Shown: positions 5,622-44,199, numbered from the stretch's first letter. The stretch: 64,000 nucleotides of DNA from Raillietiella orientalis (GCA_036172245.1 JAYWIR010000042.1:1550001-1614000); one strand, 5' to 3'. Notes: generated from the letters alone by a model not told the origin. Program-made: numbers and translations.

Positions 5622-8600
5622 TCACACTGCAGTTTGCGTTGCCAAAGGTAACAGGGTCTGAAAAATTTGCCCGTCCACCTTTCGGTTCTGCCGCTTGGCC
5701 ATTCTCGAAGCATAGTAGCCGTTGAAATCTAGTCTACGGCCAAAAATCCTACAACCTGATTTTGACCCACCACCGACCTGTACAGCATGTTGATCAGTTT
5801 GTCGCTGTAATTCTCCCTTCCGATTTCTGATATGTGATTGAGCAAGTTGATGAGCATGCCGCTGAAGGTCTCATCGTACTGCCTGACCATGTGTGAGAAG
5901 CTGCCCGTCTCCTCCTCGATGGTGTCCTGCAATCGAAAGAGAACCAAATAGCACGCACCATTGGCAGGAGTCTCACAAAAAGAAATCAAGGCACAGAACG
6001 CATGAAGTAGGCATATGAGCAGCTGATGAAAATAGTACACCTTACGAAGCACGAAATGTAAACAAGAGGCTCGTGAAAACAACACACGTACAGCAATGTG
6101 CCTACGCGGTTGCAAATTTATTAACCCCCACGCGAAAAGCACGATCGGTCAAAAGTTAACTGGAGCAACCATGGATTCGTTCTCACAGTCGAAGAAGGAA
6201 CTCGTGAATCGTGGCATCTATCAGAACCCTAACCATTGGTGGACCACTGTCAGCCGCCCTGCCGGGATCAACCACCACTCCACATTCGTGGCTCTGTTAC
6301 GTGGGCGGAGAAAAAGGAAATGCACCTTCCTTCACGTTGGATGCGCAAACGCACAACCAGAGAGACCTTGGCCGACCAGTCAGCCAGCTTCAACAACTTT
6401 GGGCGCAACTCCACGGAACAGCACACGACAAGACTCAAGTGATCACGCTGCACGCTCTCAGCCTACCAGCGCGTGCATTTTTCTCGCAGTCATCAATTAC
6501 AGGTCCCCCGAGGCTCGAGATATATGCCCATCACCGTCGTGAAAACGCAGCACGGCGTCAACGGCAACCAGAGGAGAAGACATTCCCGAGCACAAAGGCC
6601 GCGAGATCCTCTCCTACGAACACGGAAATTCCGAAAGACATCACGGATACCATCAGACAGGAAAACACGAGAAGAGGAAACGGGGTCTAAATGAAGGGTG
6701 GCAACGAGGAGCCCCATGCACCAGGGGAGTCCACAAACCACCGCTGCTGAAAGTGCGTCTACGACCTGAAGTGAAGAAAAGACTTCGCTCTGGCTGGCTC
6801 ACAGAAAAACACCTCCTGTGTTCGTGTCGCGCTTTCCTTCCTTTTTCAAAGGTGTTCGCGAGATGTGCACGGGAGGCGCGCAACGGACGCTGCCACGAGC
6901 ACATGCGATACGTGCAGTGGAGGCATTTCCGTCACTTTTGAAAGGAAGCACTCTTTGTAGCTGCGTGCCAACCGGTCTCCCCGACTGCTAAGCGACCAGG
7001 AGAGGGGACGCCTCGTTTCTATCTTCTCCTTTTCGCATGAAGCTTCCCTGATGGAACGATTCCGGCTTTGCTCCCCGAGAGGTGCGAAACATGATACCAA
7101 CAACGGCTTTCGAATGGAGAGGAATGCGCTGAAGAAGACGCGTGTCAAGCCCACTCCAAGTCTCGAAGTGGTGTGCCTACATGGCGCGGTGACTTCACTT
7201 TGGCTTAAGCACGGGCAGTAAAAAAGCACGCCCCATGGCAGGCGGAATTCCTTCCCTCTTGCGGATGCCGCGAACCGCGCTTATGGTGCGACCAAAGGGC
7301 GCAAGATCGACCGCGTTTCTGCTCGTCTGGGACTTATCAAAACTGCGTGGGAAGATATCTCTCTCGTGCTTCCCTCCGGAACGCCCACTTTTGTGTTGCT
7401 GTTGTTGCTGCTGCTGTTTCCGTTGTTTTTTTTTTAATTCAAAGGCGCACAGAAAGCAAATCTTACCAGCTGGCCGATCCGGACTTTCACGACGTTTTTG
7501 AATCCAGCACAATCAGCGCTTCCATACTAAGCAGGAAGAGAGCAAAAGTTGGAAACCGTCCGCCGTAAGGACTCAAGGGGTGCTAACCTGTGTTTTCTCC
7601 AGGAACTCGACGCAGATTTTCAGTAGCTTCCGGACAACGCTCAGTAAACTAGGACTAGTAAGCATGCAGTCTTTGAGACAGGTGTTCAGGAAATCATTGT
7701 GCAGGTCGAGCACCTCGTCGACGCTGGATACCTGAGAGAAGGAGACTTGGTGAGAGAGCATAGAAAGCTAAATAAGATCGCCTCGTCGTCCATCCATACC
7801 TCTGCTGCTTCGCAGACACACGCGCCTACTTATGTTACTATTACACGCACAGGAGCTCTATCCTTCCTTCCTTCCCATCCCAGCAACGTACCCCGGTTCG
7901 GACGTGGTAATCGCCTGAATTTTTCGTCCGTCGTAAGCCGTCGATAAGAGCATCAAGGACCACACCAACACGGCCATACGCCCAGCTCAGCAGCTCCGTC
8001 CCCGAGAACGGAGTCTCCCCGTTGCCGTGAGCGGTGGAGGCAGTGGAATTCAGGGGCACCTCGAGGTTGCGCGCGTGCGCATCGTCAGTTCAAGTTGCAA
8101 GAACGGCAGAGCACGGTGGAGTTACAGCGTGCTTCTTTGTGTCCGCTTCAGTGGATAGACATCCAGGGGCAGGGAAGACCCCGACCGTGTTTGTGCGTGT
8201 GCAGGTGCTCACCGGACGGTGTAATACTCGATAAAACACAACAGTGGGAAGGGCGCACACACTTCCCATTCCTACCGCCCTCCCACGTCACAGAAGAAAA
8301 CAGCATGCGTTTCCTTACCGGATCAAACAAAAGACGACAGTGCCCCCTCTCCCAACGAGGCTAACTCAAGACTTTTCACGTAGGCGCCGCCGCCGTCCTC
8401 CTCTACCGATCTTCTGCAAACGAGGAAAACCAGCCAGCCGGACGCGACGCGCCCGTCACTGCGAGAAACACCAGCAGCAGCGTCATCGTCCCTGCGAAAA
8501 GATGGTGAGGTTGGAAAGGCGCGGACCACCAAAGCCGGGGAGGAGGCAGAGCTGCTGCCTCAGCGACCCTAAGGCGGATCTGCTTGAAGCCCTCGAGCGT

Positions 8601-11600
8601 CACGATTTTGCGCAGTTCCGCGAAATCCTCGCCTCCAACCCGGACCTCAATCTAAACATGCCAGCAGGCCCGCATCTGTCGGGCACATCGCTGCTCGAAC
8701 GAGCCTGCCGGAGCGGGATGGCGAAGGAGTTCGCAGAGCTGCTGCTGCTGGGCGGCGCGAACCCCAATATATGGAACCCGGTTGGCAAGTGCACTCCGGT
8801 GCATGTAGCTGTTGCGAGTGCACGCCCAGAAGTGCTCGAGGTGCTGTTGGCGCGCGGAGCCAACCCCAATGTGAAGAACGGGTTCGGCAGGACGGCCCTT
8901 CATCTGACAGCGCAGTACAGTGGCGGTGGAGACCCCGATCGGCTGAAGAAGATGGTTCAGTGCGCCAAGGTGCTTCTGGAACATTCAAGGATCTGCATCG
9001 ACCTTAAGGACAACAAGGGTTGCACTCCGCTGCACCTGTGCTCACTGACGGGGAACCGGGAGCTGGCTAGACTGCTCATCAAGAACGGGGCCGACCCATG
9101 GGTCACTAGCGATAGCACGGGGAAGACTGCTGAGGAGATGTTTTTAGAGAAAGATCCCTCGTGGAGATCGGAACGAAGTCTCCTCACAAAGAAGGACCAG
9201 CAGCAGGAGAGGCAAAATCGACTTCCGGAAAGCAAAACGGCACGCCTATACGAAGCGCTGCAGGACAGAGACTTGCAACGGTTCAATATGTTTCTGAACG
9301 AGGGTGCCGACGTCGACGAGTTCCACGGAAGCTACAATCCCCTTCAGTACTGCAGCGAGCACGGATTAATCGAGTTCGCGAAGAGGCTGCTGGAGAGGGG
9401 CGCTGACCCAGACATCGCGAACCGTACCACCAGATGGTGCCCCATCCACTACGCGGCAGAAAACGGGGATGATGACATGCTGGCCCTGCTGATCGATGGC
9501 GGGGCGAACGTCAATGCGCAGGATAACCTAAAGGACACTGCTCTGCACAAGCTGTTGAAGAAAGAGCCGCGTCACTTCCCCGAGGATCAGCAAAGTCACC
9601 TGTGGAGCTTGGAACGGATCCTGGGAGCGTGGAACCTAAACCCCAACCTGCAAGATCACCAGGGCAATACGCCCCTGCACCTGGCAGCAATCGGCTGGCC
9701 GCAGGATATGGTCAAGAGGTTGCTCCACCTTGGTGCGCACATGGGACTGGAGAATCGCTTCGGAGAAACTGCGGCGGAGAGCATCTTGCCCACCACGCTG
9801 GAGCAGTTCCTGGACGAGTGCATCGAATACGACAGCAGCGCGCCCACCACTGGTGATGACTTCGCAGTGACCATCCACTACAGATTCCTGCAGCCGCCCA
9901 TTCTCTGCGATAACGGCAATGGCGGCAAGGTGAAAGATCACTGCAAGCAGCGCCAGCCACCGCTTCCGGAAACGGAGCCTCTCCGACAAATGAGCCGCGT
10001 CAAGCATCACCAGCATCTCCTGAAGCACCCCGTCGTGACCAGCTTCCTCTACCTCAAGTGGAGGAAGGTGAGGATGTACTTCTATCTGAACTGCTTCTTC
10101 TACACCGTGTTCTTGACACTGCTCACGGCCTTCTTCCTCATGAGGACGACCACAACGATGGAAGAGGAGAACGACAGAGCAGGCAACCAGCTGTCTTCAT
10201 ACTTGTGGTACTGCGTGATTTTCGCCGACGTCGGACTGATGCTGCGGGAAATCTTCCAAATCTTCGTCTCCCCGGTGAAGTATGTCTTCCTGATAGAGAA
10301 CCTCCTAGAGTGGGGAATGATTGTCGGCGTCTTCGTCGTCCTATGCCACCCCGACCAGCTCTTCGCCACGTGGGGCAGAGCAGTGGTTCTTTTCCTCGCT
10401 TGGGCAGAGTTGATCATGCTATTCGGACGTCACCCCTCGCTGTCGCTCTACGTGCGCATGTTCTCAACCGTCTCGCTCAGCTTCCTCAAATTCACCGCCT
10501 GGTACTCTGTGCTGCTGCTGGCGTTCGTCTTCAGCTTCAGCCTCGTGTTCGGAGCCGCAGGAGGTCAGTTCAGCACAGTCCACGGCACGTTCATGAAGAC
10601 CGTCGTCATGATGACTGGAGAGTTCGACTTTGGGGACGTTCCCCTGGGAGGCTTCCCTGTGGTGTCCCATCTCCTCTTTCTGTCCTTTGTATTCTTCGTC
10701 ACCATTGTCCTAATGAACCTGCTCACGGCGCTGGCCGTGAGTGACACGCGAGCCATCGCGGACAAGGCAGAAATCTTCAGCTACGTCGGTCATGTCGAGC
10801 TCATCTCCTACATTGAGTCCATCCTGCTAGGAGATCCCTTCCGGCACCTCTCCAGATATCTCCCTTTCAAGTGGATCCCCGAGTGCACACCATGCCCCGC
10901 GATCCGTGAGAACTTCCGACCCCTTTTTGCATATATCGATGCCCTGGGCAAGGGCATCTTGCTCTTTCCCACCCACGTGCCTCGCTACTCCATCATCGTG
11001 CACCCCAACTTGTGCCGCGTGACGGCGTCAGGATCGACGAAGAGGTTGTCGCTTGGCGGCGACATCATGCGCGCAGCGAAGAAGGTAGCAGAGACGCGAA
11101 ACCGGAGGGTACGCTCCGCCTCGTCTGAGGCTCTACACGAGGAGGGACTGCCGCGAGCCCTCGAGAAGCTAGAAGATGCTATCCAAGAGGGAGTTGACCG
11201 TATCCTGCAGGCGCTCAGTCGGTCAGACGATTGCGCGCTCGAGGTGGGTGCGCCCAGTCAGCAGGAGGAAGAGACACGACAACCGACTTCATTGTGATTT
11301 CCCCCCGTGACGCCCGCGAGCAAAATAGCAAGTGCGTGGAACACGAAGCACACAGATATTGCGACCTACCTTGTGCAGCTTTTCCACAAAAGTCTGCCAG
11401 TTGGGCTCCAGCACTTCAAAGGTCATATAGTACTCCAGGTTCTGTACGTAGTTCAGCATCCGTTGCCGGAGGGCGAAGACGGGGCCACGCACCCTGGCCG
11501 TCTCCTCTGTACCCGGAGAGAGGCAGCCGGCGGCGTTCCTAACGACCATCCAGGAATGGCTAAGCAACCTCTCCACGTGTTTACAGTAGAAGAGATGACG

Positions 11601-14600
11601 GAAAAGCATCTGGTAGCACGAGAGAGCGCGGGTGTTGAGCACCAGGGACACTGGCCAGGACAGCTGGTAGCTGAACGCCAGGGCCTCCCACCCAGGCAGC
11701 TCGAGGTTCTCCAGAGGCTGGAGACGCTCCTTCTCCTGGTTCGTCTGGATGCTAGCTATGCGCAGCATCTGGCTCTCCAGGTCGAAGGGGAGCAGGCAGA
11801 CACCCACTTCGTCCTTATAAGGGTCAGAGCTGGCAGCTGATGTCCGCTGCGCCAGCTCGAGGAGGGATGCCAGCCTGGGCTCGACAATATCGGCAACCTT
11901 CTGGTGTAGCTCCAGTTGGGCCAAGTCCATGAACTGCACCACCAGGTCTCCCTGAGCCAGCAGCAGGTAGCGGCGCACGGATCGGAGCTGTCCCAGTAGG
12001 TCCCGATCGGTAAGCAGCAGTTGTAGCAACGTGCGACTGGCGAACCGATAAGCCTCGTCTATGGCTGCAGCCGCGTGAGAATTATCGGCGGGAGAGGCGT
12101 AACGGAGCTCCTTCATTGCCTGTGGACACTCCACTGCCACGCCTGTTGCGCCACGACGGGCGTATGACGCAGGCTCGTCCTGACCGCGCGCAAATACTTG
12201 CCACACTGCCGCATGACATTCAAGTACTTTCCCGTGTGCAAAATTCTCTGGGCCTGGTTCCACAGGAACGCCGGAACCCTGTCCCGATGAAGACTGTAGC
12301 GCTTGGACCAGTAGTCATCGCTGTAGTATTGGCCCTGGTGCTTGCCCACAGCCGCCTCGTCTGTCCTGTTATCCTTGACCAGAAACTAGAAAGGGGGGAG
12401 AGGGGATGGTCGCACAGGAAGATCGTCTCCCTGCATCCTCTCTCTCACCTCACCATATGGGTCCCGGATGACACCTTGGTAGATCCAGTGCCGCAAGATC
12501 TGCATGTACGGTTTGCATGCAGACTGCAGCAGAAACTCGCATAGCTCCCGCTCCTGTGAGCTACCGGAGAACTGACAAGACTTCTCCTGCAGGAAGCTAA
12601 TAACCTGGCCTCCGAAGAAATCGTTCTGCGGGGAAAGGGGCGAGCATGCAGTTCGCGAACGCCCACTCCACGCAAGTGTCGCCTCACGTACCTTGTTGAT
12701 ATTCTCGACGATGATATTCAGAAGCATGAAAGTACGGAGCGTCGGCTGAAGATAGAACCAGAGACGCTGCAGGGTCAGTTGGCCCTGTGCGTACTTCATC
12801 TCCAGCTGGGCCACAAGTACCTGGGGGAAAGCGACGGGTAAACGATATGATGTCATCTTTCTCAAATTCATAGAGATGCAGGCAATAGACCACATCAGTT
12901 TGTGCACAAGAAGCGAATGATGACCTGGAAGAAGCGAGGGCCTCTCGGATCCCGCTTTTGCACACAGCAGCAGCAGCGAAAAGTGCCCGGCCCCAAAGTC
13001 CATCGCCACAGTGGGAGAAAAGAACTCACCAAGTAGTCCTTGAGCAAAATCCACATGGCCGCAGACAAAGCCTGGTTGACCTGACCTGACTGGAAGTGCG
13101 CCTTGTCCTCTACGAACCGGATGACCGTGGAATAACTTGAGCAGAGAGACTGGATACGTTTCACCTGCTCCTTTAGAGAAGGATCTGCGCGTCGCCATCC
13201 CCGCGGGCAACTGAGCAAGTTCTACGACGCCATTCCTGGACTCACCAAGCGTCTGGTCCACAGTGAAACTGCGCGGTGCGAGTTTGCCGTCCACGAGGTC
13301 CGGGTATACATAATCCCCTTCGACGCCAGTCAGCACATACAGGATGTCCTGCAGCAACGCATGTTCCTGCGAAGAGGGAGGGAGGCATCCTGAATGGGAG
13401 GTAGCGAACAAATGAACGTGAAGCCAGTTCCCGGAAACAGGGGAGATCACTCACCGAGGTCTCCAGAGAAGCGTTTCTCGCCACCAGGATGGTAGTCCCA
13501 ACTAAGGTGGAACCTTTCTGTGACCCAACTGGGGAAGCCGATACCAGGGGAGCAGCGGTCTTCCCGATGGAAGGACTGCCCTTCGAGTCCGGAGCGCTCC
13601 TTTTCCTGTTTGAGGCGGTCCCTTAGCTACACGGAAGCAGGCGCAGAGGTGAGAGTGGCTGCAGTAGAAACGTGTGCGTGTACCGACTTTGACGATAGCC
13701 TCCGGGGAAAGGAGGCTGCCTTCGGCGTCGTTCTCTGTTGCTATGCTCAGGCTCTTCTTTTTCTTGTCCACCCTATCCTTGGCATGCCTTTCCAAAGCAG
13801 CCCTGAAGTTCTTGTGCTTATGTATTTGCGCCAGAAGATAGACCACAGATTCCACATGCTTCGCTCTGAAGAGAGAACTCGTGAGAATGAAAGACGGACA
13901 AAGGGAAAGGTCCGTTTACGATGCTGCGCTACGAGCACACAGAGTAGCTCACGGCCTGTATGCCCGTAGCGTGAGCCCCAGAAGTAGAAATACCATCTGA
14001 AGGAAGAATGGAAACGAGAGCGCAAGGAAAACCTCGGTAAACAACAAAACAAAACCTCGAGCACCGGTTCGACTAAGAGTACAAGAGTTCACTTATCGCC
14101 GACTCACAACCAGAAAAACAGCATATTTCCGATAAGAATGCTTTTGTTGAAAGCCAGGAGAAGCACTGAACTTCATCGGCATCCTTCGGAAAGTGCTCAG
14201 TGCCTCACACGCGATTTCAAGCAGGTCCAGTGGAAAAGACATCATTTCATCCTGCCCTTTCTTTTCAAAACAAGTAATCGTCCCGTTTTCGGAGCGGAAA
14301 CAAGAAAAGGTGAGCTCTGGACGCCCTCTTCAGCAAGAATCTATACCGGCCAGAAAACTGGAAACCTAGCTCTGGTGTGAAGCACACTGTCTCTCATTGA
14401 TACTTGAGCGTAGAGATCGCTAGCCATTGGGAGTTTTCTGAAGGGCAAACGAACAGGTCGGGACGTGAGAACCAAACAGACCATCAGGCTCCCTAGTGGT
14501 TTAATTCAGAATTCGCTGCAACTATTGGTTCTCAAACAAAAAAAATGATCCAGGTATCCGTTGGCAACGAAAAACACGCTTGTTATTCTCATCGACTCTA

Positions 14601-17600: not shown

Positions 17601-19904
17601 CGCATCTGGAAGGGGGCATAAACCGTAAACGAAATTCCGCTTTCCCCGGAAGACCACACCACACACTTAGGGAAGAAAAATCCTGATGGTAAAGTGGTAA
17701 AATTGATGTAAGGTTGGCTCTGTCGATCCATACCCTTGAGAATCTAAACAAAGGATTGCCTGTCGACTTTGCAGAACCCAAGATCAATCTTAAAAACGCC
17801 GGAATTCTCATTCTCAAATAAAGGAGACTCACACATGACCGGCACCGTTGTGAAAACTGATTCATGCAAGCAGAACCTAGACAGTTGGAGAAGCCCATGT
17901 ATGCACGTACATAACGCTTGAAGCTCTGACTGGTACAGGTAACCCACGCAATTAATCTCTTATGAGTCATGAAGACAGCGCTTTCCTTCAACGAACAAAT
18001 GATTTCCTTATTACGGTTAAACAGACAATTGTCCATAAGCAACAACTGGGTCTATAATTTATTTCTCTGCATCTACGGTCGCACGATTCTGAACGCAACT
18101 CGATATGAATGCCACGGAAAAGTTTTCTGTTCGATGCAATGCCAAGGTGAAAATACGGAAGAGAACGGAGATTTCTGAGGAGGGGAGGATATTACTCGGG
18201 CTAAGAGGAAGTTCCAGAAGTTAACTTATTAGAATCAAAAAGCAACAAAGCCCAACTGCCATTACAAATTTAATATTTACACTACCATAACTCTCATTTC
18301 TGCGTTGTTTTCTTATTCGATTATTTCTGATTCGGACTTAGTCTGAAGATAGCAAAACTCAAAAAAAAAAAGAAAAACTAATATTAAGACCCTAGGAGAA
18401 AAACTGACTAGATTTCTTGATTGGGAGTTACAAATATGCAAAAACAAGATAGGAGTCCAATCAAATAGTATGAAAAGGTTGCAACCAAGAACTCATAATC
18501 CATACCCAAGTCAATGTGATAAGTGGTACTTTTTATTTTTTGGAAGAAAAAGCAAGTGACTGCCAATTTCAAAAGCATGAATCTTATAGAAAAAAGATGC
18601 AAAAAAATTTGCCCTATCATCAACAATGCTTTCTTGAATATGCTATCAAGTTCATCACACCTTAAAAGACAATACTGAACATACAGAATTTTAACACAAC
18701 ATTTAACTAATTTTTAAATAGTAGCCAAAATGATGAAAATTAAACATTATGTCCATTCCTCTTCAGGCAATGCAAATCCGATAAAAACGGACTTCAAGAT
18801 TACATATCCACTGAATGCAAGCAAATACACACAGAAGAAAAGAATCTATTTGATTTCAAAATGGAGCAATTCAGCACTAAAATAAAATTACTGTCCACAT
18901 CGTACAAATTTTAAAAGTCCCTTGAATATTTACATCACACTAAACCGCTGACATAATTTTATTCAATGCCTACACCATATATAATGTGATTATGATTAGC
19001 ACTTTGGCCAATGCAAGGCAATTTCAATACATTCAAGTTCCTGGAATAATCTTGAGAAATTATTAATGGTGAACAGAAAATGTTTGAGACACAGGACATG
19101 ATGTGGAACAAACCAATTGATTTTTTGAGGAAAATTGATGAATCTTGCTTTTCCTATTCACTCATAATGTTGGGACAGACCTCTAATGATGTCTAAATTA
19201 ACATGAATGTTGAACTAAATATAAAACTGAAACTAAATATTTAAAAACTTGCGGAAAAAATAATAACAATAATGATAGGAACAGTGGAATCACTGTAGAT
19301 TTATGATCAGCCAAAAGAATAATTAGAAACAATGTATTAAAAACGATTGATGGTGTCTGTTCTTTTAACACCCTTTCAATTCCTCGAATTAATTCAGCAA
19401 ATAAAACCAAATTGATAAACCAAAGAAAATATTAACAAAACATCTGAAAGGGCCGATTTTTTCTTTAAAGAGTTTAGTATGCTTGAAAAAGGCTTTCTCA
19501 GTCAAAAAAAATTTAAGATTTTTTACTTGTCAAATAATAGCAGATCACGGTCATTTATTTGCAATCTATGAAAGTAACTCAGGATGAAAGTAATCATCCT
19601 GAGTACCATCACAGTAAAACCGATCAGTAGAATAAATGCTTGAAACCATAACAATTCCAATCACAAAAACATATCATTTCACTTCATTAAAAGATACCAC
19701 TAAAAGTTATTCTTCTACATTTAGCTGATTCTCATATTTCCTGTAAGCTTGGCATTGTGATGGTAATCCAAGCAAATACAAAAATATACTTTCTAACATC
19801 CTGATAGTTAATTGTTAATTCAAAATGAATAATAACTAAAAACAAACTCACCCAAACAATTCTAATAAGGCACTTATCATGTGATGTTTTTCATATTCAC
19901 TCAT
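5622..19904 (-). CDS. TUBGCP2: Gamma-tubulin complex component 2 (GCP2/Spc97 family), 13 coding exons, ~843 aa
   Basis: Phase-consistent exons in transcription order: 19904-19852, 17071-16910, 13865-13688, 13626-13455, 13389-13246, 13184-13030, 12820-12692, 12625-12449, 12385-12202, 12142-11370, 7731-7588, 5926-5778, 5733-5622 (2532 nt). Family motifs: MSEYEKHHMISALL, EFLRKYEELK, WIYQGVIRDPYGEF, ILHTGKYLNVMRQCG, YQMLFRHLFYCKHVER, FLNTCLKDCMLT, RLDFNGYY. AATAAA on the minus strand at 5497-5502. Confidence 0.95.
6543..6930 (+). repeat. 388-bp direct repeat, copy 2, inside GCP2 intron 5927-7587
   Basis: Aligns to 644-1031 with 11 substitutions. Confidence 0.95.
8085..8090 (+). promoter_or_regulatory. 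Candidate Initiator (TCAGTT) for the nested TRPA gene
   Basis: Matches the arthropod Inr consensus TCAGTY, ~410 bp upstream of ATG 8502. Motif match only. Confidence 0.35.
8502..11297 (+). CDS. pain: TRPA-family ankyrin-repeat cation channel, Painless-like, uninterrupted CDS (931 aa)
   Basis: One continuous ORF with multiple ankyrin repeats (TPVHVA, GRTALHL, GCTPLHL, GNTPLHLAA), then TLEQFLDECI, HLLKHPVVTSFLYLKW, six hydrophobic segments, pore KTVVMMTGEFD and LMNLLTALAVSDT. The N-terminus DPKADLLEALERHDFAQF...TSLLERA recalls Painless. 8502 is the first in-frame ATG. Confidence 0.9.
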   Translation: MVRLERRGPPKPGRRQSCCLSDPKADLLEALERHDFAQFREILASNPDLNLNMPAGPHLSGTSLLERACRSGMAKEFAELLLLGGANPNIWNPVGKCTPVHVAVASARPEVLEVLLARGANPNVKNGFGRTALHLTAQYSGGGDPDRLKKMVQCAKVLLEHSRICIDLKDNKGCTPLHLCSLTGNRELARLLIKNGADPWVTSDSTGKTAEEMFLEKDPSWRSERSLLTKKDQQQERQNRLPESKTARLYEALQDRDLQRFNMFLNEGADVDEFHGSYNPLQYCSEHGLIEFAKRLLERGADPDIANRTTRWCPIHYAAENGDDDMLALLIDGGANVNAQDNLKDTALHKLLKKEPRHFPEDQQSHLWSLERILGAWNLNPNLQDHQGNTPLHLAAIGWPQDMVKRLLHLGAHMGLENRFGETAAESILPTTLEQFLDECIEYDSSAPTTGDDFAVTIHYRFLQPPILCDNGNGGKVKDHCKQRQPPLPETEPLRQMSRVKHHQHLLKHPVVTSFLYLKWRKVRMYFYLNCFFYTVFLTLLTAFFLMRTTTTMEEENDRAGNQLSSYLWYCVIFADVGLMLREIFQIFVSPVKYVFLIENLLEWGMIVGVFVVLCHPDQLFATWGRAVVLFLAWAELIMLFGRHPSLSLYVRMFSTVSLSFLKFTAWYSVLLLAFVFSFSLVFGAAGGQFSTVHGTFMKTVVMMTGEFDFGDVPLGGFPVVSHLLFLSFVFFVTIVLMNLLTALAVSDTRAIADKAEIFSYVGHVELISYIESILLGDPFRHLSRYLPFKWIPECTPCPAIRENFRPLFAYIDALGKGILLFPTHVPRYSIIVHPNLCRVTASGSTKRLSLGGDIMRAAKKVAETRNRRVRSASSEALHEEGLPRALEKLEDAIQEGVDRILQALSRSDDCALEVGAPSQQEEETRQPTSL
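19155..19203 (-). repeat. 49-bp copy of the GCP2 acceptor/5'UTR/start-codon segment (original at 19894-19942)
   Basis: 48/49 identity. The copy reads ATG AGT GAA TAG; the original reads ATG AGT GAA TAT GAA. Confidence 0.9.
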
Positions 19905-22900
19905 AATGTTGGGACAGACCTCTAATGGTGTCTAAATTAACACAAAGGTATTTAAAACATTCTCTCAACATAAAACTCACAGCGTACAAAAAATGAACAT
20001 GCTTTCACCCTACACATTTATATGCAATAATCTGAATCAGGGAATAAAGAAAGACAAAAAAAGATATCTTACTTATTTTGCAACTTAATTTGCAGGTTAG
20101 CAATTCTGTTGAATCATAACAAACATTCAGCTACAGAATGCCTGTTCAACTAATGATTGAATACTAAGCCACCTGAAACTAATCTAAATAGCATAAAATT
20201 CTTATGAAATAAGATTTTCTGGAGTCTCAATTCCCATTGACCATGGAAATGAAAAATTCAAAAAGCTGCTGCATACTGATGAAAATAATTCATATGAGAA
20301 GCAGTCAATGCAATATGATTCCTAAAAACGGAAAATATTAAAAAAAAAATGTACAAACAAAGTACCCACAGTTATTATAGTACAAAGACTGTGATCATAA
20401 TAGTCACTTCAAATTGAAAGAGCTGTGATGACAAAATTAAAAACATGTAATTTGTTCTGAATTCAAGACTGCTTACGACGGGAGCACATATATATCGAGA
20501 TAATGCCAACTAAGTCCTAATCATGTGACTTTGTTTGTATTCAAATATGACTTCATTAATACCGGTCTTTATTCGCAGGTACTCCCGTTCTGTCATTAGT
20601 CTGTGTTTGGAATTCGGATAAATGGTAGAAACCGTTAAAGTTCACTAAGGCTAATAAAGAGGCTAATGTCATAACTAATGAAGGAACGAAAATTTCGGGG
20701 AATTGGCAACAACATGCAATCCTGATACACGAAATTCCAAAGAGAAACAGCACAATGCAGCATACGAATAATGCTTTGAATGCTTTCCAAACAAATTCTA
20801 AGGACTAGACGCTTCTACTTATTGCAAAAGCGAAATGACTAACGAAATTCTAATTCATTAAGAATACGTAAAAACTTATTTGCTTTCGTTGAAATTACTT
20901 TGTGCACCTTGTGTTACTTTAAAACCACTCTTACTCGATGGCAAACACGGGAATTGGTAATCAAAAGCAGCGGCAGCAGCATGTAAAACAGTTATGCCAA
21001 CAACGTGAAAATTGGAATCATCTAACAATTTGCTAATGAAGCTCCAGCTTTAATAGAGCATTTCCTGACAAGATGTTTTCGATACTTTTCTAACTATTAC
21101 TAGTATTGCCATTTCAAATAATGAACAACAGTGTTGCATCTTCCAGTCATGAGTAAATAAGCCAGTATGGCACTAAAAAATGTTATTTTCATCTGTTGAA
21201 AATAACAAATTTTCAGTATCTGTCATTTGCAGTAATACATTCATTGATTGAGCATATTCTATGAAAGCTATTTAAAACCATTTGAAGAAGAATGGTAGAT
21301 ACTTTCTTACATGATTACTTCAAAATTTTTGAAACCTACACAACGCATGTCTTATGAGGAATTCAAATTAAAAGAAACGAATACATTGATTGGAACAATA
21401 TGTTCTGTACGTAATGAGAAATATCAGAACACGGAAATATCGAATCGCAGCAGAAATAACTGATTACATCCATTCAAATGTAGGTGTGTGTCAATGCATA
21501 CGATACTCTCGAGGAAAGATTCACAAGAAATTCCTCAAATAGCAATACTGGACAACGGAAAAACACAATTGTGATAATTCTTTCTTCTAAATGGAGAAAT
21601 ATGATCCAAATCCACTTTCTCACAATAAGAACAACGGCTCTATAATGTCTAACTCTCGACTTTCCTACTATAATGTTGTGAACACATCTCGTTTTTGAGG
21701 GTGATTCACCCAATCAAAACGAAGTCTATGAACTGCAGAAGTTATTTTCTCAGAGTTGTTTTTCTTTTCCCTTTTTTTCAAGTAACACAGTGGATATTGG
21801 ATTGGTGTGAATTTGATGACAAAACTCTCGAGAGAATTCTGTTTCATTGAACACACAAATTGATGATGGCCTCACATGTGCTTTTCAATGGTTTTAAAAG
21901 TCGATGGAGATAGTGGGGGTAATGTAGATTTAGTTAACAGATTTAATAATGTAGATTTGTTATTTATGGCAACATGATTAGTGATCAAATGCATGGAGTC
22001 ATAAACTCACACTATTCTGGTTATTTCAGCGGAAAACCTAAGTGAATAAGTGTCTGATGACTTTGGAAACATGAAAAAGAAAAGAGGTGCATGTGAAATA
22101 TCTCTCTTTGATTTGAGTGGGATGGTAGAAGTCATGTTTATTTTTGCAATAGCGGGTTATTTGAACATGATTTTGATTCAGAACGATAAAGCCGTACATT
22201 GAAAATGACTTGTTAAATCGAGAAAGACACATTAGAACTCACGTATCTGTTTACTACATGCATTAGACACTTTGTTGTGAGTAAATAAGAAAATGTTTCC
22301 TATTATTATATATGCTATTACTATTACTACTTGTTGCAGTCTAGAATACAAGTAGTGGTTGCTGGCGTAATCTACGAATACCAAAAGTTCGTAATGGAAT
22401 CCTTTCTGGCAAAGCCTACTTTATTTTACAAACTTAGATATCTCTGCCACATGCTGAGATGCGAGCATGCAAGCAAGGGATGCTGTTCCATGAAGTTCTA
22501 TCATTCCTTCCTCTCTTTTTCTCTCTCCGGATCTCATTAATATTCACAGAAACCTCTTCATTCTTGGTATGCGTACTTCTTGGAACCAGCTGACAGCAAT
22601 TCATCAAGCATCCATCGTGTGGTGAGGCTACATTCACATGTGGTCATCTTGCAAAAACCTTTTGGCGTTTTGGAATATTCATTCCCGCGGTATGAAGGTG
22701 CAGAGCTAAGATACGATAATAAAGCGATGCCACGAAGTTCTAAAGTTCATGTTTATCCAGCAAAGAAGACTATGTTCAAACTTCAGCCATGGAAATTTTC
22801 CAGATGACTAGGTATTTGGGACTGACACAAAAGAATTCGACAGTCACCGGGCACAGAACATTCTTATCACTTATTATAAGGATTGCTAGGCATTGCTTTC

Positions 22901-25070: not shown

Positions 25071-32509
<7,439 letters not shown>

Positions 32510-33525
32510 CTGGGAGAAGAAGGACGGGGCTCTTGGCAATAGGGTAGTCGGTTGGCACCAAGCCGGCTCGATCGCCTTGAGGGACGCCGGCGGTCAAGCT
32601 GGCAGGCAATGAGGGAGAAGATGGGACCGAGGGAAGAGAAACGAAGACAGAGCCCATCCCTCCCTCTCTCCCTCCCTTGGTCGACAGAGTCGCGACGGGG
32701 AGTCCAAGGAGGGAGGGGAAGGAAAGACGCAGAGCACTGCAAGGCCGCCTTGGTCAGGAGGGAGGGAGCCCCTCCTGGGTATGGGTCCTCCCCTCAATCT
32801 TCTAAGGGGATGCCACAGCCACTCTCCGGGTGCGTTCTCTGGCCCACTTGGTACCCGTTGCAAGCTCGGGAAGCGAGGCGCTGCGAAGAGAGGGGATCAC
32901 GAGAGGGAGTGCAGGTAGAGGAACCAAAGGAGAAGGAAGTGGGGTGCGAATGAGCCGGGGGTGTTCTCGAGGGAGACACCCACGGAGTTTTCCTGTTGCT
33001 GCTTTCTTCCCCCCTTTTGTTCGTAACAGGAGCGCCCATCAGTCGGGAGAACCACAGGAGGGGGGAAAGAAGAGTCATGGGGTGCTCCTAGGAGTGCTTC
33101 TGTGGATCGCGGAGTTTCCTCTGCCTTCCTGGGCTCTTCCTGCACGTCGGGAGGCACGGAGCGAGCCCTCGGACCTCTTCCTCCGCGAATTCAAGCGCCG
33201 TCCCGCAGGGTTGGAACCCCGCTCGCCCGGGAACGGCAAAAGCGGGAGCAGCGTGGCTCCGGAGTGCACCACCTCACTCCTCCGCCACCAGACTCACGGG
33301 CCCTTCAGCGGTCGGCGGTGATGCAAGCAAGCTGGGATGGAGACGGCGGTGATGGTGGAAGAGGCGGAGGCGCGGATCGCCGCAGGAGGGAGGGGAGAGA
33401 AAGATGGCGCGGAGGACGGCCTCTACCGAGGTAAGGAAGATACCGCAGAGCGCTTTTTGCCCGTCCCTTCCGGGAGAGAAAGAGACGGATGGAAGGGGAG
33501 GAGAGAAAAAGAAACTCCACCGCAC

Positions 33526-33726
33526 CTTCTCCGGGAAGCTTTTCAGGGGCTCGCTCTGTGCGCTCTTCTCCTGCTCGGGGACCGCCTTCAGGTTGTGGAA
33601 GTAGCATCCTTGGCGGCTCCAGGTGTCGATCATCGACGAGTTGCTGCTGTGGCTCTCCGACATGCTCGCGTGGCCAGAAGAGCGATACTCGTCGGAGGAG
33701 GAGTTGTGGTAGGCTTCGCGCTGTCC
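33526..33726 (-). CDS. Probable 5' coding exon of the ABTB2/BTBD11 gene
   Basis: cag acceptor, gtgcgg donor, 67 codons, phase 0-0. Contains SSDEYRSSGHASMS, a motif I recall from arthropod family members. The join to 32509 is unresolved. Confidence 0.65.
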
Positions 33727-35250
33727 CTGAAATGCATGCATGCGTCTGTTGGAGAAGCGAGAGGGAAGAAGAGAGAGAAAAAAAACAACAACGACGTGCG
33801 TGCGGTGCCTGCGGAGATGTTTCACGCGCGAGCGACAGCCTCCCTCGGTGAGGCTGGATGGAGGCAAGGGGGGGGGGGGGGGGACGATGCTCTTGTCCCC
33901 AGAGGAGCGCCCCAAGTCGGGAGAGGATGCCGAGGTGAAGACGGTCCTCTCCCGGCCACCTCTGACAACGACCTGCAGCCAGGCCTGGACCGAAGGCGGT
34001 GATGAGGTTAGCCACGCGGCGGAGGAGGAAAACCGTCAAGATGTGTGTACCTTCCTCAGGAAGGAACTCCGGAGGGCGCCCGCTCCTCTGGGTCTCCGGC
34101 TGAAGGACGTTTCTTCCTTTCCTCCCCCGTCCTTCACCTCCCCTTCTTGCCGAGGTATGCGCCCTGGCCGCAGGTGGCAGGGTCGAGCTCCCCACTCAAG
34201 CGCGTCATCGTCGTCGTCATCTTCGTGCCGCCGCAAGCAAGGAGCAGCACGGAACTTCGCCCTGGGTCTGCCGCCCTTCTTTGCCTTGGACTACAAGGGG
34301 CGACTGCTGCGCGAGGCGTTTGTCCGCCCCCCTCTTCGAGCGGTCATCCCTTCCGACCCTGTCGATCCGCTCACGGCAGCGGCGATCCGACTGAGGCTTT
34401 GAGAAGATCATCGGCGATAACTCAAAAGAGTCCCCGTCCGTCCGTCCGTGTCGCCGCTCTCGTATCCTGAGGGGAGCGCGCGGAAGGAGGACGGGTGGAC
34501 GAGGGTCTCCACGAAGACGACGCTTTTGCTCGTCCGCTATGTCGGGCCACGCCGTCCCGCACCACGCGCTCGCCCTTCCTTTCCCCATTCATCATCCGCC
34601 GAAGACAACGATCAACACCCGAAACTTCACCGGAAACCGCGCAGGCGCCCGTTCTCGTGCTCCGCCGCCCTTTCCCGTGTCCCGGGACGTCCGCGAGAGC
34701 CCGGGAAGCTGCAGAGGCGTTCTCGCTTCGGAGATCCCCGCGACCGAGGATCCCTTGGGCGCGCGAGCCAGGTTTCTCGATCCCGGCAGTTCCACCGGAA
34801 CATCTTCCTTTCTCCCCTTTCCGGGGGGTGTCCTGCGAGGTGCTCCAGCGCTCGCGATCTGCTCTCCTGGATCCTTCCTTAGGACCCCGCGTTTTCCCTT
34901 CAATGCCGCCGGTCGGCTATCCTCGGCTGCATCGTGCTCTTCACATAACAACGCGTGTCTGGAGAAGGGGGGGGGGGGAGGGGGGAGGGGAAGGACTTCG
35001 CACCGCGTGTCGTTGCCGCGCGCGAGCAGCTGCCGCTGCCTGGCACTGTTGCTTTGCCTGCCGGCACGGAACACGCGTGCGTGCGGAAGCAACCTGCGCC
35101 TTGCGCCTCCGCTCGACGCGCGGCTTCGGACTCCACGGGGGTCAACCCCGTTGCTACGGGCAACCCAGATCAGCTCGGATCCCACCTAAGCCTCCTACTT
35201 CCCCTTCCCCTTTATTTCTCCCTTCGCTCTCTTCGCCAAGCGCGACTCAC

Positions 35251-36105
35251 TTTCGGGTTGAAGTGCTCCCTCTCGCGGTCGTCCAGATGATGCGGAAAAT
35301 CCAGCAGGTTCTTCTTCCGGTGCTTCGTCTTGTTGAGGTGTCGCTTCCTCGGCAGGGCGAGGTGTATGTCGTGGCCCGGAACGCTCCCGAACATTCCGCT
35401 CCTGCTGCTCAGGGTGGAATTTTCCAGGTTTCTCAAGCTGCTCTTGCACGCGACCCGGGAGACGCAGCTGCCGTCGACAAGAATCTCCGTCTTCTTCGAG
35501 CTGTCGAACCCTCCTCCTCCTCCTCCTCCTCCTCCTCCGCTGCCCGCGGCGTCCGGCGCTTTCCAGGAATCCTTCCGCTTGCCGTCCTCCTGCGGATGCC
35601 CGTTGCACGGGTCAGAGTTCTTCGACACGCTCTGGTGGCACGATGGGTGCTGCCTAGTCTTCCTACCAAAGTCAGGGTCCGCGGCGGCACCGCTGCGGTC
35701 GCACACGGGGAGCACGGTCTTGCACGGGTCCATTCGGTGGTGGAAGAGGTTCTTCGGAGCGCCCTCCTCTTTGCTGCTCTGCGAGTCCCTGGTGGCCGCG
35801 CACAAGTGGAGGTCGCCGTAGCAGCTGGAAACCCCTCGGCCCTGCTTCTCCGAGGACTCTGCTCCCGCGTGGGGAGGGGCGCCGTCGCAGCCTTCGCCCT
35901 TCATCTGGCGCGGGGCGAAACTCCGCTCCTGTGCGTAGCTCTCCACGTGGAACGCCTTCGGTCCGGAGTTGCTGATGTTGACGTAACTTTTCGAGCCGAG
36001 CAGCTTCTTCTCCTCCGCCTTGCCAGGATGGATGAGCTCCATGCTGCAGGAGTTCTTCAGGACGCAGGGCCCGGCTTGCTGCTTCCCGTACGGCTTGCTC
36101 AGCAC
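35251..36105 (-). CDS. Probable large low-complexity 5' coding exon of the ABTB2/BTBD11 gene
   Basis: cttccccag acceptor and gtgagt donor bound exactly 285 open codons that include a poly-Gly run. Confidence 0.6.
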
Positions 36106-36173
36106 CTGGGGAAGCGGAACAGCTCCTCGGTTTGCGCATGAGGGGGGGGTGGGGGGTCGCCGACTCTTCTTAC

Positions 36174-36249
36174 CTGGTCTGGGGACGGCCCGCCGGAGCT
36201 CACCGCCGCGATGTACGGGGAGCGGAAATCTTCCCTTGCGTCCGGTACC
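36174..36249 (-). CDS. Probable small 5' exon of the ABTB2/BTBD11 gene
   Basis: tttccag acceptor and CAG|gtaaga donor. In frame with 36105-35251 across a 68-nt intron. It needs a further upstream exon that I could not identify. Confidence 0.5.
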
Positions 36250-37323
36250 CTGGAAATAGAGACAGCTCTTTCAGGAGCACGGGAGAGAGGGGGAAGGGGG
36301 GAGGAGAGGAGGAAGTCGCTGAGCGCGGCTCGCTCCCCTCCGGAAAATTCTTTTCTCTTCTCCTCTTTTCGCCTTTGCTTCATCTTTACGACACTCCGCC
36401 TTCGTCCTCGGCGGACAAGAAAAAGAAGCACCGCGCTCGGGACGCGAGGCGACTACCGGCAGCCGCAGCAGCCGAAAGGCAGGAGAGCTTCTGAGATGCG
36501 CAGGGACTGTCGCGCGCAATTACAACGCGATTCTAATTGTGCCTCGGCCTGGGCTGGTGATTGCAGCTTCGCCGGCGGCTACGTTTGACTGAAGCGCACC
36601 CGCGCCCAAGGCGACCGTCTCGGAGGTCGATCCCGCCGGGCTGCGCGCGCGAGCGCAAGCGAGAGGGGAAGGACGGGGAGGAAGGGGCGGGGGGGAAGCG
36701 CGCGCATCTCCGGGGCTTCCCTTCTCTCCAGCTCGGGGTTTGCATCCAGAGCGCCCCACTCGGGAGCGTCCGCGAGGACTCTCCCAAGGATGGAAAGTTC
36801 GTCCTCGCGGGCCCCTCGTGGAGAGAGGCAGAGGGGTCTACGGATGCATCTTCCTCGCGAACTGGAAATGGGAAAACACCTCGCGACTCCCCCAGGACCA
36901 GGAGGGGGTAGCCATCCCAGATCATGCGCTCCGTCCTCGTCGCGTCACGTAGCCGTCTGTTTCCATGGGCGACGAAAAAAAAAAAAGGGTGGGGGGGGGG
37001 GGAAGGATTACTGAGGTCGTTAACCGAGTGCACTGGGTAAGACGGCAACGGGTTTCTCCTGCAAGACACCATTGCACCTCGGATGGGATTCGCAGCTTCC
37101 GGAGCACGCACCAAATCGAAAAAGCCTCCTTCCGACGGAGAGCAAAAGTGATGGCTGCAAGAAGTGAGGCTGCGTTCGGTGCTGCCGATGTGTTTGGGAC
37201 TCGAACTTGCTGTTCTTTCTTTCAACAGTTGCAGAAAACCCCTACAGCGACAAGGATCCGGTCCAAGGGATCTCTGCCCGAGGGGTGGGTGGGAGTAGCC
37301 TCTGCTCAGAAAGGAGAAAAAAG

Positions 37324-37815
37324 AAAACGGGATGCTGACAAAGTAGCGGGGTGACGAAGGGCACGCTGTGGGAGTAGTGGGCGAAGCCGCCCCCAGCCCC
37401 ACACCCTCTACTTCGCCTTTCCTTTCGCCAGGCTTGTCTGCGAGCAGCGGCCATGTACGCAGTCTCCAGGGATCAGTTGAAGGAGAGCAAATCCGTGAGA
37501 GCGGGCATCCAGCTTCCCGTGGGAAGGTTCCATCACTGGATGGCGGAGGTGAAGCTGGGAGCTTACATCCACGAGTCAGTGTCTCCGCGCCGCGGGGAGG
37601 GGGGAAGGAGGCGCAGACGCGTCGCCTAACCGGGAAACCCCCTCCCACCCAGGTTCGCGGCGGTGTACCTGGCGGCAGGCGTGGAGAACTTCCTCGAGGA
37701 GTTCCTGTCCACGCTCGTTCCCAAGGATCGTAGCGTCGTCGTCACCGACGTTCCCTTCTCGGAGGACGCCGTCGCGTCCAGTGGGGAGCTGTGGGGTCTT
37801 GTGCAGCCCTTCGCC
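37324..37815 (+). pseudogene. Inverted partial duplicate of ABTB2/BTBD11 segment 31228-31717 (one whole histone-fold exon, the intron and most of the next exon)
   Basis: Reverse-complement alignment shows 10 substitutions plus one 2-nt indel over ~490 bp. Splice sites are retained (37432-37574; acceptor before 37653). Confidence 0.95.
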
Positions 37816-38375
37816 AAACGCGTCCTCAGAAGACCCAAATCTTGCCCTTCCAAGATACAAAACGTCCTTCTTCATCGCATTGGGTCCGTGCCTTTCCGGA
37901 CCGTTCTTCCGCGGAAGCTCCCGCTTCGTCCTTGGGTCCGCCTCTTCCAGCTTTCCTGAACCTTCGCCGTTGATCCAGAACTTTCGTACCTCTCTTCTCC
38001 CCTGAAGCATCCGTTTCCGCCTCTTTTAGGCTCACGGGAAAAGAAGTTGCAGCTACTCCGGTGGGGCAGTGCCGTACGGTTCTTTTGCTCCTACTCCCCC
38101 TGGAGGAGTTGCTGCGGTTACGAGTACGGAAGCGTTCCTCAGAATGCCGATGCGTGCGCGCTTGTCACGAGTGCGCATCGCGTACACGCATGCGTGTGCA
38201 CACTGGTCGTAGGTAAACACCCCTGCCTCCATAAACGTGCCACCGCGGAATTGGAATCGGATTCCAAGTACCAACTCCCTTTTTTCGTGATTCGTGGGTT
38301 TCTTTTCTTCTTCTTGTTCACCTCGCAGCAAAAGTTCCGTATGTGCACGTAATTTTTATTTTTTCCTTTCGTTTT

Positions 38376-38407
<32 letters not shown>

Positions 38408-43047: not shown

Positions 43048-43050
<3 letters not shown>

Positions 43051-43078
<28 letters not shown>
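43051..43078. repeat. (TC)n microsatellite
   Basis: Direct reading. Confidence 0.9.
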
Positions 43079-43081
<3 letters not shown>

Positions 43082-43333
43082 TTCCCTCGGCACCTTCCCG
43101 TGTGTGCACAGAAGGATTTTTTCGGAGCACCGACCCTCCTCCCTTCCTTCCCCTCTCCCAACACTCTTCCACACCATAAACTCGCTCGGGTTGGGATCTT
43201 CGTCTGGCTTCCAGGGTAACCTCATCTTGCCCGGAATCGAAAGCATCAGACTCGTCGCAGGTAGCACGCGGGACCACGCGGTGTGAGGGAGGGAGAGGAA
43301 GGGGGAGGCAAGGAGAGATCCGAAAAGGAAGGT

Positions 43334-43364
<31 letters not shown>

Positions 43365-44199
43365 GAACCCACGAAGTGTCTACTTGCCTGCCTCCCCAGC
43401 GCGACCTTCGAATCGCCTACCACCCCTACCCGGCATGCAGGCGGTGGTGCTGCCGAGACGCGCCGATGCATTCCTCCTGTCCTCGCCTTTCCCGGAAATT
43501 TCAGGCCCGAGAGGTCTCCTGGAGGATCGAGGGAAGGAAGCGGTTTCCCTTAGTGACGGCGACGCCGTTGCGCCCTAGCTCGTTCCCTCGATTGCTGCGA
43601 GTGCTTGGAACGAATCCCGGCCGCGGACCTCCAGGCGGGCGAACAGGTCCGCGCAACCCGCTGGTTCCACCTACGCGGGATGAAAGATGGTCCAGTGCAG
43701 CTGGGCCGTGCTCTCGAGGGCCGAGGACGAGGGAGAGAGAAAAGCACGGGAAGGAAATCTCTCTGTTCGATTTCTTTTCTTTTCTTTTCTTTTTTTTTTG
43801 TTCCTCCCCCTCTGCCGCCACCGACCTCTTCCCGAGGACAAGAAGATTGCATCCGCCACAAGCAGCACCTCCAGCATCACCCGATTCTAAGGACAGGGAG
43901 ACGCGCAGCTGGATGAGAGGAACCACGGGAGAGAGAGAAACCTCCGGGGATCCCGTTTCGCGGGGGAGAACGGAGAGGGAGAAGGGGAAGGAATGCCGCC
44001 GCTCCCGGCCCTCAGGGTGCCTCTCGAAACGAAGACTAGAGGTCCGTCTGCCCTCCGCCATCCGTTCCTTTGCTGACGTCACCTCCCTTCCCGGGGAAGC
44101 TCCGAGAGAACGGAGGACAGAGGAAGGGAGAGGGGGGAGAAGGAAGTCCCCTCGGGAATGGAGCCTTAGGAAAGCGTGGGGGAGAGGACAAGGAGGAGG

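Follow-up and report, generated by a model that had tools for sequence, protein, structure and literature searches.

An ordinary, functional TRPA cation channel gene of the painless clade probably lies antisense within an intron of GCP2 in the 64,000-nt stretch of Raillietiella orientalis DNA analysed here (hereafter the window). Its coding sequence forms a single exon, and the two genes would be separate transcription units sharing an old neighbourhood. The host intron, which appears to be the fourth-from-last of GCP2, would be made up almost wholly of the channel gene. Coordinates of the relevant features are collected in the table; Rfam and tRNA searches over the full 64,000 nt gave no matches.

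The reading frame of the channel is open without interruption from ATG to stop, as the sequence-only reading had described it, and encodes 931 amino acids in 2796 nt including the stop, inside a stop-to-stop frame of 1020 codons. Such a length is not expected by chance. Indeed, when the segment 7732-11369 was shuffled 500 times, the longest frame averaged 165 codons and reached 314 at most, and the probability of 931 open codons given the composition is minute (P ~3e-15). The GC content at the three codon positions (0.59/0.41/0.74) also follows a pattern typical of coding sequence.

Table. Features of the channel gene and of its host gene GCP2, in window coordinates.
Feature	Position	Strand	Evidence
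Channel CDS, painless-like TRPA, single exon	8502..11297	+	ORF; Pfam Ank families and Ion_trans; PDB TRPA1 match; painless-named relatives
Ankyrin-repeat region, residues ~60-430 (boundaries approximate)	8679..9791	+	Pfam Ank, Ank_2, Ank_4; ankyrin/DARPin matches at residues 61-344
Ion-transport domain (six-transmembrane and pore), residues 532-751	10095..10754	+	Pfam PF00520, E 2e-09
5' flank of channel ORF, 770 nt, presumed promoter and 5' UTR	7732..8501	+	sequence; in-frame stop just upstream of 8235
Gap between channel stop and GCP2 exon, 72 nt	11298..11369	+	A21 C23 G17 T11; no poly(A) hexamer, no A tract
GCP2 intron holding the channel gene, 3638 nt	7732..11369	-	GT at 11369-11368, AG at 7733-7732; GCP2 homology contiguous across
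Two GCP2 coding segments, 13185-13027 and ~13444-13220, GCP_N_terminal (boundaries approximate)	13027..13444	-	tblastn; Pfam PF17681
GCP2 exon (upstream boundary approximate)	12198..12820	-	tblastn 12820-12185; donor read from sequence
GCP2 exon upstream of host intron (GCP_C_terminal profile positions 1-189 of 309)	11370..12142	-	Pfam E 5.9e-50; splice signals; tblastn 51-54% identity
GCP2 exon downstream of host intron, 48 codons, VSSVDEVLDLHNDFLNTCLKDCMLT...	7588..7731	-	tblastn 54-66% identity to five GCP2 proteins
GCP2 penultimate coding exon	5778..5926	-	AG 5928-5927, GT 5777-5776; tblastn
GCP2 last coding exon with stop (…LDFNGYY…TAV*)	5622..5733	-	sequence; ORF 5622..5870; tblastn

Painless channels form a TRPA subfamily and act as sensors of noxious heat and irritants in Drosophila and in arthropod orthologues. 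The protein encoded in the window shares their organization, with N-terminal ankyrin repeats (Pfam Ank, E 1.4e-41; Ank_2, E 1.5e-37) and a six-transmembrane ion-transport domain including pore and S6, which is recognized both by PF00520 and by the alignment of human TRPA1 structures from the PDB to residues 413-772 (157.6 bits, E 3.6e-45); a second TRPA1 chain, 7ykr, scores 111.7 bits with the whole protein as query. Bit scores and cluster assignment place it closer to Painless than to TRPA1. Painless-named proteins reach 307 bits when the C-terminal 532 residues serve as query, and the Atlas cluster closest to the channel is painless-like (score 0.93). Among the best 120 database relatives, all 19 with informative names are called painless or painless-like, and none TRPA1, pyrexia or water witch. 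The earlier identification as a painless-like TRPA channel is thus borne out, membership of the painless clade being assigned from the best matches and their names, as the tree presented below contains no TRPA1, Pyrexia, Water witch, TRPA5 or HsTRPA outgroups. With its 931 residues, compared with 880-1020 in relatives, the channel resembles Drosophila Painless and the arthropod orthologues, but its full-length identity to 27 relatives is only 30-34%, its branch is very long, and its S6 motif reads NLLTALAVSD where relatives have NLLNGLAVSD. Insects as a rule have a single Pain gene (PMC2753570, Table 2).

On the opposite strand, the GCP2 exon upstream of the host intron, whose acceptor ag stands at 12144-12143, ends at 11370 with ...EKLHK followed by gtaggt, and the downstream exon 7731-7588 is preceded by ag at 7733-7732 and followed by gt at 7587-7586, both junctions of the host intron being in phase 0. 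Alignments of five GCP2 proteins run on over this junction without a break; for instance, residues 459-711 of P0131 fall at 12143-11364 and residues 709-761 at 7734-7576. The frame is kept in all three GCP2 exons downstream of the host intron, the last two of which lie at 5926-5778 and, followed by the stop, at 5733-5625. Homology, reading frame and GT-AG signals lead us to infer that GCP2 splicing joins 11370 to 7731 and bypasses the channel, whose coding sequence lies wholly within this one intron. Both the 3638-nt GCP2 intron and the antisense position of the channel inside it, as claimed by the sequence-only reading, are in agreement with these data; on the other hand, its count of at least 12 introns in each of the three neighbouring genes, which besides GCP2 include an ankyrin-BTB gene and a leucyl-tRNA synthetase gene, was not confirmed for GCP2, which tblastn resolves into 7-8 coding segments, one query giving an additional weak match. 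The host intron is by far the longest of those compared, at 3638 nt, versus 44 nt for the intron preceding the last coding exon, 55 nt for the one at 12197-12143, between exon 12198..12820 and the next exon, and ~200 nt for another. The strongest GCP2 match, P0121, was considered as a close relative and rejected, as the gene model behind it carries an internal duplication.

The pairing of the two genes is also found outside the window. In a Hymenoptera-like metagenome contig, L038, a painless-like gene (exons 8860-9954 and 10293-11831, + strand) and GCP2 (exons 18840-13273, - strand, with the final LDFN exon near 13100) are convergent neighbours whose coding ends lie ~1.2 kb apart. There the channel gene is adjacent to GCP2, not nested, and carries an intron, so the arrangement of the window is not simply conserved. 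In the dragonfly Ladona fulva, painless and GCP2 are consecutive gene models on one contig (KAG8222678.1 and KAG8222679.1). Furthermore, both genes lie on the same contig or chromosome in six of the seven species present in both match lists, which shows a shared chromosome and not adjacency; for Blattella, the painless-like protein in the match list comes from one scaffold and GCP2 from another. GCP2 is within reach in only 2 of the 80 metagenome loci carrying painless-like genes, and locus L040, 99.97% identical to L038, counts with it as one observation. The sequence-only reading knew of no such arrangement in other species, but the pairing recurs in L038 and in Ladona and, at the level of a shared contig or chromosome, in six of seven species. 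We found no literature on a painless-GCP2 neighbourhood, including painless with Grip84, or on painless/TRPA synteny in crustaceans, and nothing usable on where Dgrip84 lies in Drosophila. Insect painless and GCP2 being convergent neighbours, tail to tail, their pairing in the window would not be a fresh insertion, and the nesting most likely arose by a single local rearrangement within a long-standing neighbourhood, or else is the ancestral condition, later lost in Hymenoptera.

A promoter of its own presumably drives the channel gene, either within the 770 nt ahead of the ATG or still further upstream. At the other end, 17 poly(A) hexamer variants were sought on the + strand after the channel stop and none was found before 12615, the first AATAAA downstream being at 14754. 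Since the 72-nt gap contains no such hexamer, the 3' UTR of the channel probably runs antisense into the GCP2 exons. This tight 3' spacing is the less ordinary detail of an otherwise common nesting. Both the recurrence of the painless-GCP2 pairing in distant arthropods and the antisense overlap predicted between the mRNA of a sensory channel and the exons of an essential gene could merit a specialist's time.

Such an overlap could have been selected as a mutual-exclusion switch, and the functional coupling of the antisense pair would then explain the long life of the neighbourhood. In its broadest form, which is likewise rather unlikely, this proposal has selection keeping painless and GCP2 physically together, whether nested or tail to tail, from a time before insects and the crustacean-like lineage of the window diverged. 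If true, the antisense switch would silence the nociceptor channel in dividing cells or reduce GCP2 in channel-expressing sensory neurons. In addition to the short gap devoid of hexamers, the convergent orientation seen in both the window and L038, the recurrence of the linkage in distant arthropods and the expression divergence of nested genes documented in Drosophila (PMC5174743) are consistent with it. However, the 1.2 kb between the genes of L038 contain ATTAAA and AATAAA-type signals for both strands, so that the two transcripts there need not overlap; neighbourhoods can last with no function behind them; and Drosophila nested and host genes are not more co-regulated than controls (PMC3814207). 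We consider a selected switch rather unlikely. With two ordinary, separately transcribed genes, as we prefer, expression in distinct cell types, GCP2 in dividing cells and the channel in sensory neurons, would hold interference low.

The sequence-only reading had proposed a retroposed or relocated channel. In that case, a painless mRNA or DNA copy would have been inserted recently into the GCP2 intron in this lineage, bringing a new conflict with its host. The absence of introns in the channel coding sequence, where GCP2 has at least 7, could point in this direction, as could the outlying length of the host intron and the fact that the intronless insect TRPA genes Wtrw and HsTRPA have been attributed to retrotransposition (PMC2753570). 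However, the 72 nt after the channel stop contain no remnant of a poly(A) tract and no A run, and, of the 34 direct-repeat families in 7588-11500, the 20 largest include none with one copy before 8502 and another after 11297, a trace which an old event would have lost. The GC3 of the channel (0.738) equals that of the adjacent GCP2 exon (0.747). Moreover, 11 of the 24 painless-like genomic contigs examined from other organisms (at least 6 kb each) carry one uninterrupted ORF of 904-1057 aa; these represent ~6 distinct genes distributed over both halves of the family tree, and intronlessness is thus a family trait and no mark of a recent event. Painless already adjoins GCP2 in the Hymenoptera-like contig and in Ladona, and no young duplicate was seen among the database relatives, all of which show at most 39% identity to the channel in the C-terminal region searched. 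Collectively, these observations do not support the earlier proposal, and a recent retrocopy or relocation is quite unlikely.

The conservation of the protein bears on whether the gene is still functional. Across 27 relatives, 67 columns are invariant and 54 nearly so, and the channel keeps 63 and 47 of these, respectively; most invariant columns of alignment A1 fall in the ion-transport domain and are clustered at residues 582-757. Two changes, N742T and G743A, affect the otherwise invariant S6 motif. In a midpoint-rooted tree of 69 painless-like rows with no named outgroup, the channel is placed on a long branch beside a copepod-containing clade (SH-aLRT 96), its end branch measuring 1.22 against a tree median of 0.18 (~6.8-fold). 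In the GCP2 tree, the window protein is weakly grouped (87) with barnacles and malacostracans, also on a long branch, of 0.81 against a median of 0.12, again ~6.8-fold. Since both branches are equally stretched, it is the lineage that appears fast, not the gene. Elsewhere in the window, a leucyl-tRNA synthetase exon shows ~50% identity to vertebrates and to arthropods alike. The lineage is probably that of a fast-evolving pancrustacean outside the insects.

The long branch and the two S6 substitutions, together with the lack of a recognizable poly(A) signal near the channel stop, could be taken as signs of a silent, decaying copy, that is, an untranscribed relic still open by chance or through recent origin, leaving GCP2 as the sole working gene here. 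This is very unlikely in view of the improbably long open frame, its coding-type codon-position GC, the retention of nearly all invariant family residues and the same branch excess in housekeeping GCP2. A mis-join in the assembly that set the channel gene among GCP2 exons, at which the outlying intron length might hint, is scarcely credible, as the window is free of any N, GC is continuous over both borders (0.57 / 0.58 / 0.56) and the two genes also stand side by side on an independent contig from a different organism.

Opposite-strand gene nesting is a textbook arrangement in Drosophila. The arrangement in the window resembles the opposite-strand nesting of D. melanogaster (Lee and Chang 2013, PMC3814207; Assis 2016, PMC5174743) in that a whole coding sequence sits within one long intron of a host that is of essential type and has multiple introns. 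In that species, ~10% of genes take part in nested structures, 71.27% of nested genes are opposite-strand, and the median host intron measures 4826 nt versus 138 nt for other introns (PMC3814207), a contrast comparable to the 3638 nt versus 44-200 nt of the window. On the other hand, nested pairs as defined in the work cited have non-overlapping CDS and UTRs, whereas the 72-nt gap suggests an overlap of the 3' UTR with host exons, and nested genes are usually young and fast-evolving (PMC3814207), whereas the one in the window appears old and conserved. Nested genes are generally predicted to interfere with each other's transcription or to be expressed in a mutually exclusive way (PMC5174743). 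The channel in the GCP2 intron would thus be a normal case of common nesting involving a known channel family, with no new mechanism shown.

A second parallel is provided by the Water witch/HsTRPA genes, which lack introns in several insects and have been explained by ancient retrotransposition, with some lineages gaining introns later (Matsuura et al. 2009, PMC2753570). Painless-like genes show the same pattern, most contigs having a single ORF and a few having introns, but Wtrw/HsTRPA belong to another TRPA subfamily. No literature statement that painless coding sequences are intronless was found, and the accessible parts of the Pieris and Bactrocera TRP papers contain no painless exon counts.

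The change in nesting state, with painless beside GCP2 in L038 and inside it in the window, parallels that of the TipE cluster, an ion-channel-tied family whose neighbourhood is kept across Pancrustacea and which underwent intronic nesting and then escape (Li, Waterhouse and Zdobnov 2011, PMC3240667). The TipE case concerns different genes and draws on 21 annotated genomes, whereas the painless-GCP2 case draws on one window, one metagenome contig, one consecutive gene-model pair and shared-chromosome hints. The recurring painless-GCP2 adjacency in distant arthropods would be a small addition to the examples of deeply conserved microsynteny with changing nesting state.

The window holds two intact genes on opposite strands, the exons of the host staying in frame across its guest. 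The host is the minus-strand gene of the gamma-tubulin complex component GCP2 (approximately 5.6-14 kb), and the guest is a painless-like TRPA channel gene, the ORF of which occupies 2796 nt of a GCP2 intron. The channel frame is open over 1020 codons; in 500 shuffles of the host intron, the longest frame had a mean of 165 codons and a maximum of 314, and the chance of 931 open codons, given the base composition, is about 3e-15. Both GCP2 junctions at this intron are of phase 0, and alignments to five GCP2 proteins, of insect, barnacle, shrimp and centipede origin, cross the junction without gaps. For instance, the database protein P0131 matches 12143-11364 with its residues 459-711 and 7734-7576 with residues 709-761. 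Since GCP2 homology, phase and exons continue over it, the intron is indeed 3638 nt long. Thus, ORF, GT-AG ends, frame and contiguous GCP2 homology bear out the complete nested channel ORF proposed by the sequence-only reading. The 12 or more introns ascribed to GCP2 were not confirmed, as mapping gives 7 to 8 coding segments plus one weak match. Two GCP2 introns with GT-AG ends are very short, 44 nt (5734-5777) and 55 nt (12143-12197), and against these the 3638-nt and 1661-nt introns at the channel gene clearly stand out in length. Such short introns point to a compact, fast-evolving genome.

Coordinates of the channel gene, its GCP2 host and other genes in the window
Feature	Coordinates	Strand	Remarks
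Channel ORF	8502-11297	+	ATG to stop, 931 aa
GCP2 host intron	7732-11369	-	encloses channel ORF
GCP2 exon upstream of host intron	12142-11370	-	AG at 12144-12143; ends ...EKLHK at 11370, then gtaggt (splice signals)
GCP2 exon downstream of host intron	7731-7588	-	AG at 7733-7732, GT after 7588 (splice signals)
GCP2 intron next to channel	5927-7587 (1661 nt)	-	directly upstream of channel on +; CTG/T-rich run near 7400-7440
Two further GCP2 exons	5926-5778; 5733-5625 + stop	-	in frame, to conserved ...LYR|LDFNGYY... end
Ankyrin-BTB gene	~27.2-30.1 kb; ankyrin repeats 29468-30109; BTB/POZ in two exons, 28389-29009 + 27237-27785	-	
Cytoplasmic leucyl-tRNA synthetase gene	exons 57113-61583 (gene ~57-62 kb)	+	

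In the channel protein, Pfam recognises ankyrin repeats (Ank, E 1.4e-41) and, over residues 532-751, an ion-transport domain; residues 413-772 match solved TRPA1 channels with 157.6 bits. A database search with residues 400-931 gave 191 matches, the best 120 of which were considered (up to 307 bits, 29-39% identity). Nineteen of these 120 are called painless or painless-like, spanning Odonata, Hemiptera, Lepidoptera, Hymenoptera, Blattodea, Phasmatodea, Neuroptera and one copepod, and none of the 120 is called TRPA1, pyrexia or water witch. In the ESM Atlas, too, the closest cluster (score 0.93) is painless-like. The initial naming as a painless-like TRPA channel is thus supported at the level of best matches, the protein being a putative member of the painless clade.

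Both the channel and its host are constrained. Aligned with 27 relatives, the channel protein keeps 63 of the 67 invariant columns and 47 of the 54 nearly invariant ones. The four departures from invariant columns are I523V, L665T and, within the S6 motif, N742T and G743A (residues 742-743, encoded at 10725-10730). This motif reads NLLTALAVSD instead of the NLLNGLAVSD invariant in the 27 relatives, a change that may affect channel gating. The GC content by codon position (0.59/0.41/0.74) is close to that of the adjacent GCP2 exon (0.66/0.38/0.75). The channel end branch is long, 1.22 against a median of 0.18 in a 69-row tree, and that of the window GCP2 shows the same excess (0.81 against 0.12, 36 rows), both trees being quick LG+G4 searches in which long rows leave exact placement unsure. 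Since GCP2 shares the excess, the long branch is a property of the lineage and not of the channel gene.

An intronless frame beside genes described as having 12 or more introns had suggested a retroposed or relocated channel. To examine gene structure in relatives, metagenome contigs were scanned, which yielded 80 loci with painless-like genes, and structure was counted in the 24 loci of at least 6 kb. An uninterrupted ORF of 904-1057 aa spans the whole protein in 11 of them and ORFs of 818-857 aa are found in eight further loci, the genes of the other five (L038, L040, L074, L037, L079) being split or cut. The 11 single-ORF loci include near-duplicates and amount to about six genes in the tree; as these are spread over the insect half and the copepod-containing half alike, having one coding exon is a trait of the painless-like family. 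Matsuura et al. (PMC2753570) describe the same pattern for Water witch and HsTRPA, which are also TRPA genes; our literature search found no paper stating it for painless. Furthermore, there is no A tract within 72 nt after the channel stop, and, of 34 direct-repeat families, the 20 largest include none with copies on both sides of the ORF. With single-exon relatives, no such marks and the painless-GCP2 pair present elsewhere, retroposition or relocation is unsupported.

The pair also exists in other organisms. When nine GCP2 proteins were compared with all 80 loci by tblastn, matches appeared in L038 and L040 only, which count as one observation because they are 99.97% identical. In L038, the painless-like gene comprises coding exons at 8860-9954 and 10293-11831 and shares 54% identity with a bee protein that bears the name painless. 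GCP2 lies convergent to it, with exons extending from 18840 to 13273 and a final LDFN exon close to 13100. The coding ends are about 1.2 kb apart; the two genes are adjacent but not nested. In Ladona fulva, the entries for a painless-like protein and for GCP2 directly follow one another on one contig (KAG8222678.1 and KAG8222679.1, locus tags 015875 and 015876). The Ladona GCP2 model (P0143) is partial: it ends after the counterpart of exon 7731-7588, lacks the last ~105 residues and reads into an intron. Nesting in a later intron could account for this truncation, as could simply a poor gene model; both Ladona models look damaged. In the painless-like one (P0009), the C-terminal end carries an ankyrin segment of N-terminal type. 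Seven species occur in both match lists, and six of them (Hetaerina, Ischnura, Ladona, Bicyclus, Plodia and Leptidea, the exception being Blattella) have painless-like and GCP2 genes on a contig or chromosome of equal size. The GCP C-terminal region is duplicated within the gene model of P0121, a GCP of Plakobranchus ocellatus, and this inflated its score in the GCP2 search. Taken together, L038, Ladona and the shared chromosomes show that the channel was not newly moved beside GCP2; the lineage difference is whether it lies beside or between the last exons of its host.

The channel is presumably transcribed from its own promoter in the 770 nt upstream of the ATG, or from farther upstream in the next GCP2 intron. 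This 1661-nt intron could be the site of the promoter or of a 5' UTR exon, and such an exon would make the two genes interleaved rather than nested. The GCP2 pre-mRNA would be read through the channel gene and then spliced, and the two genes are probably active in different cells. At the other end, the channel stop codon (11295-11297) is 72 nt away from a GCP2 exon. From there, the plus strand carries none of 17 poly(A) hexamer variants until 12615, its first AATAAA lying at 14754. Barring an atypical signal, the channel 3' UTR would thus run antisense through at least exon 12142-11370, so that the channel 3' end probably overlaps host exons.

As for the rest of the window, LARS1 and GCP2 proteins of the barnacle Pollicipes pollicipes are encoded on a contig of the same size (44118722), and the wider LARS1-GCP2 neighbourhood may therefore also be old. 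Between GCP2 and the ankyrin-BTB gene, 18000-22000 is AT-rich (GC 0.32-0.33) with dense AATAAA/ATTAAA and no gene recognised. The region 28000-48000 is GC-rich (0.58-0.68 per 2-kb window), and both its strands contain numerous 300-600-codon ORFs with R/P/G/A-rich translations; since none has a Pfam match, they look like non-coding GC-rich DNA. No Rfam families or tRNAs were found in the whole window.

Collectively, the channel is a real, conserved painless-like gene nested in its host on the opposite strand, which is an ordinary arrangement. The novelty is modest and lies in a painless-GCP2 neighbourhood recurrent in distant arthropods and in the probable antisense overlap of the channel 3' end with host exons. 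According to PMC3814207, nested structures involve nearly 10% of D. melanogaster genes, 71.27% of the nested genes are opposite in strand to their host, and introns that harbour a nested gene have a median length of 4826 nt, compared with 138 nt for the remaining introns of the hosts. An analysis of such pairs in D. melanogaster has addressed transcriptional interference and expression divergence (PMC5174743), and the prediction of interference or cell-type-exclusive expression made for this pair is the standard one for nested genes. The insect TipE cluster likewise shows nesting and escape inside a stable neighbourhood (PMC3240667).
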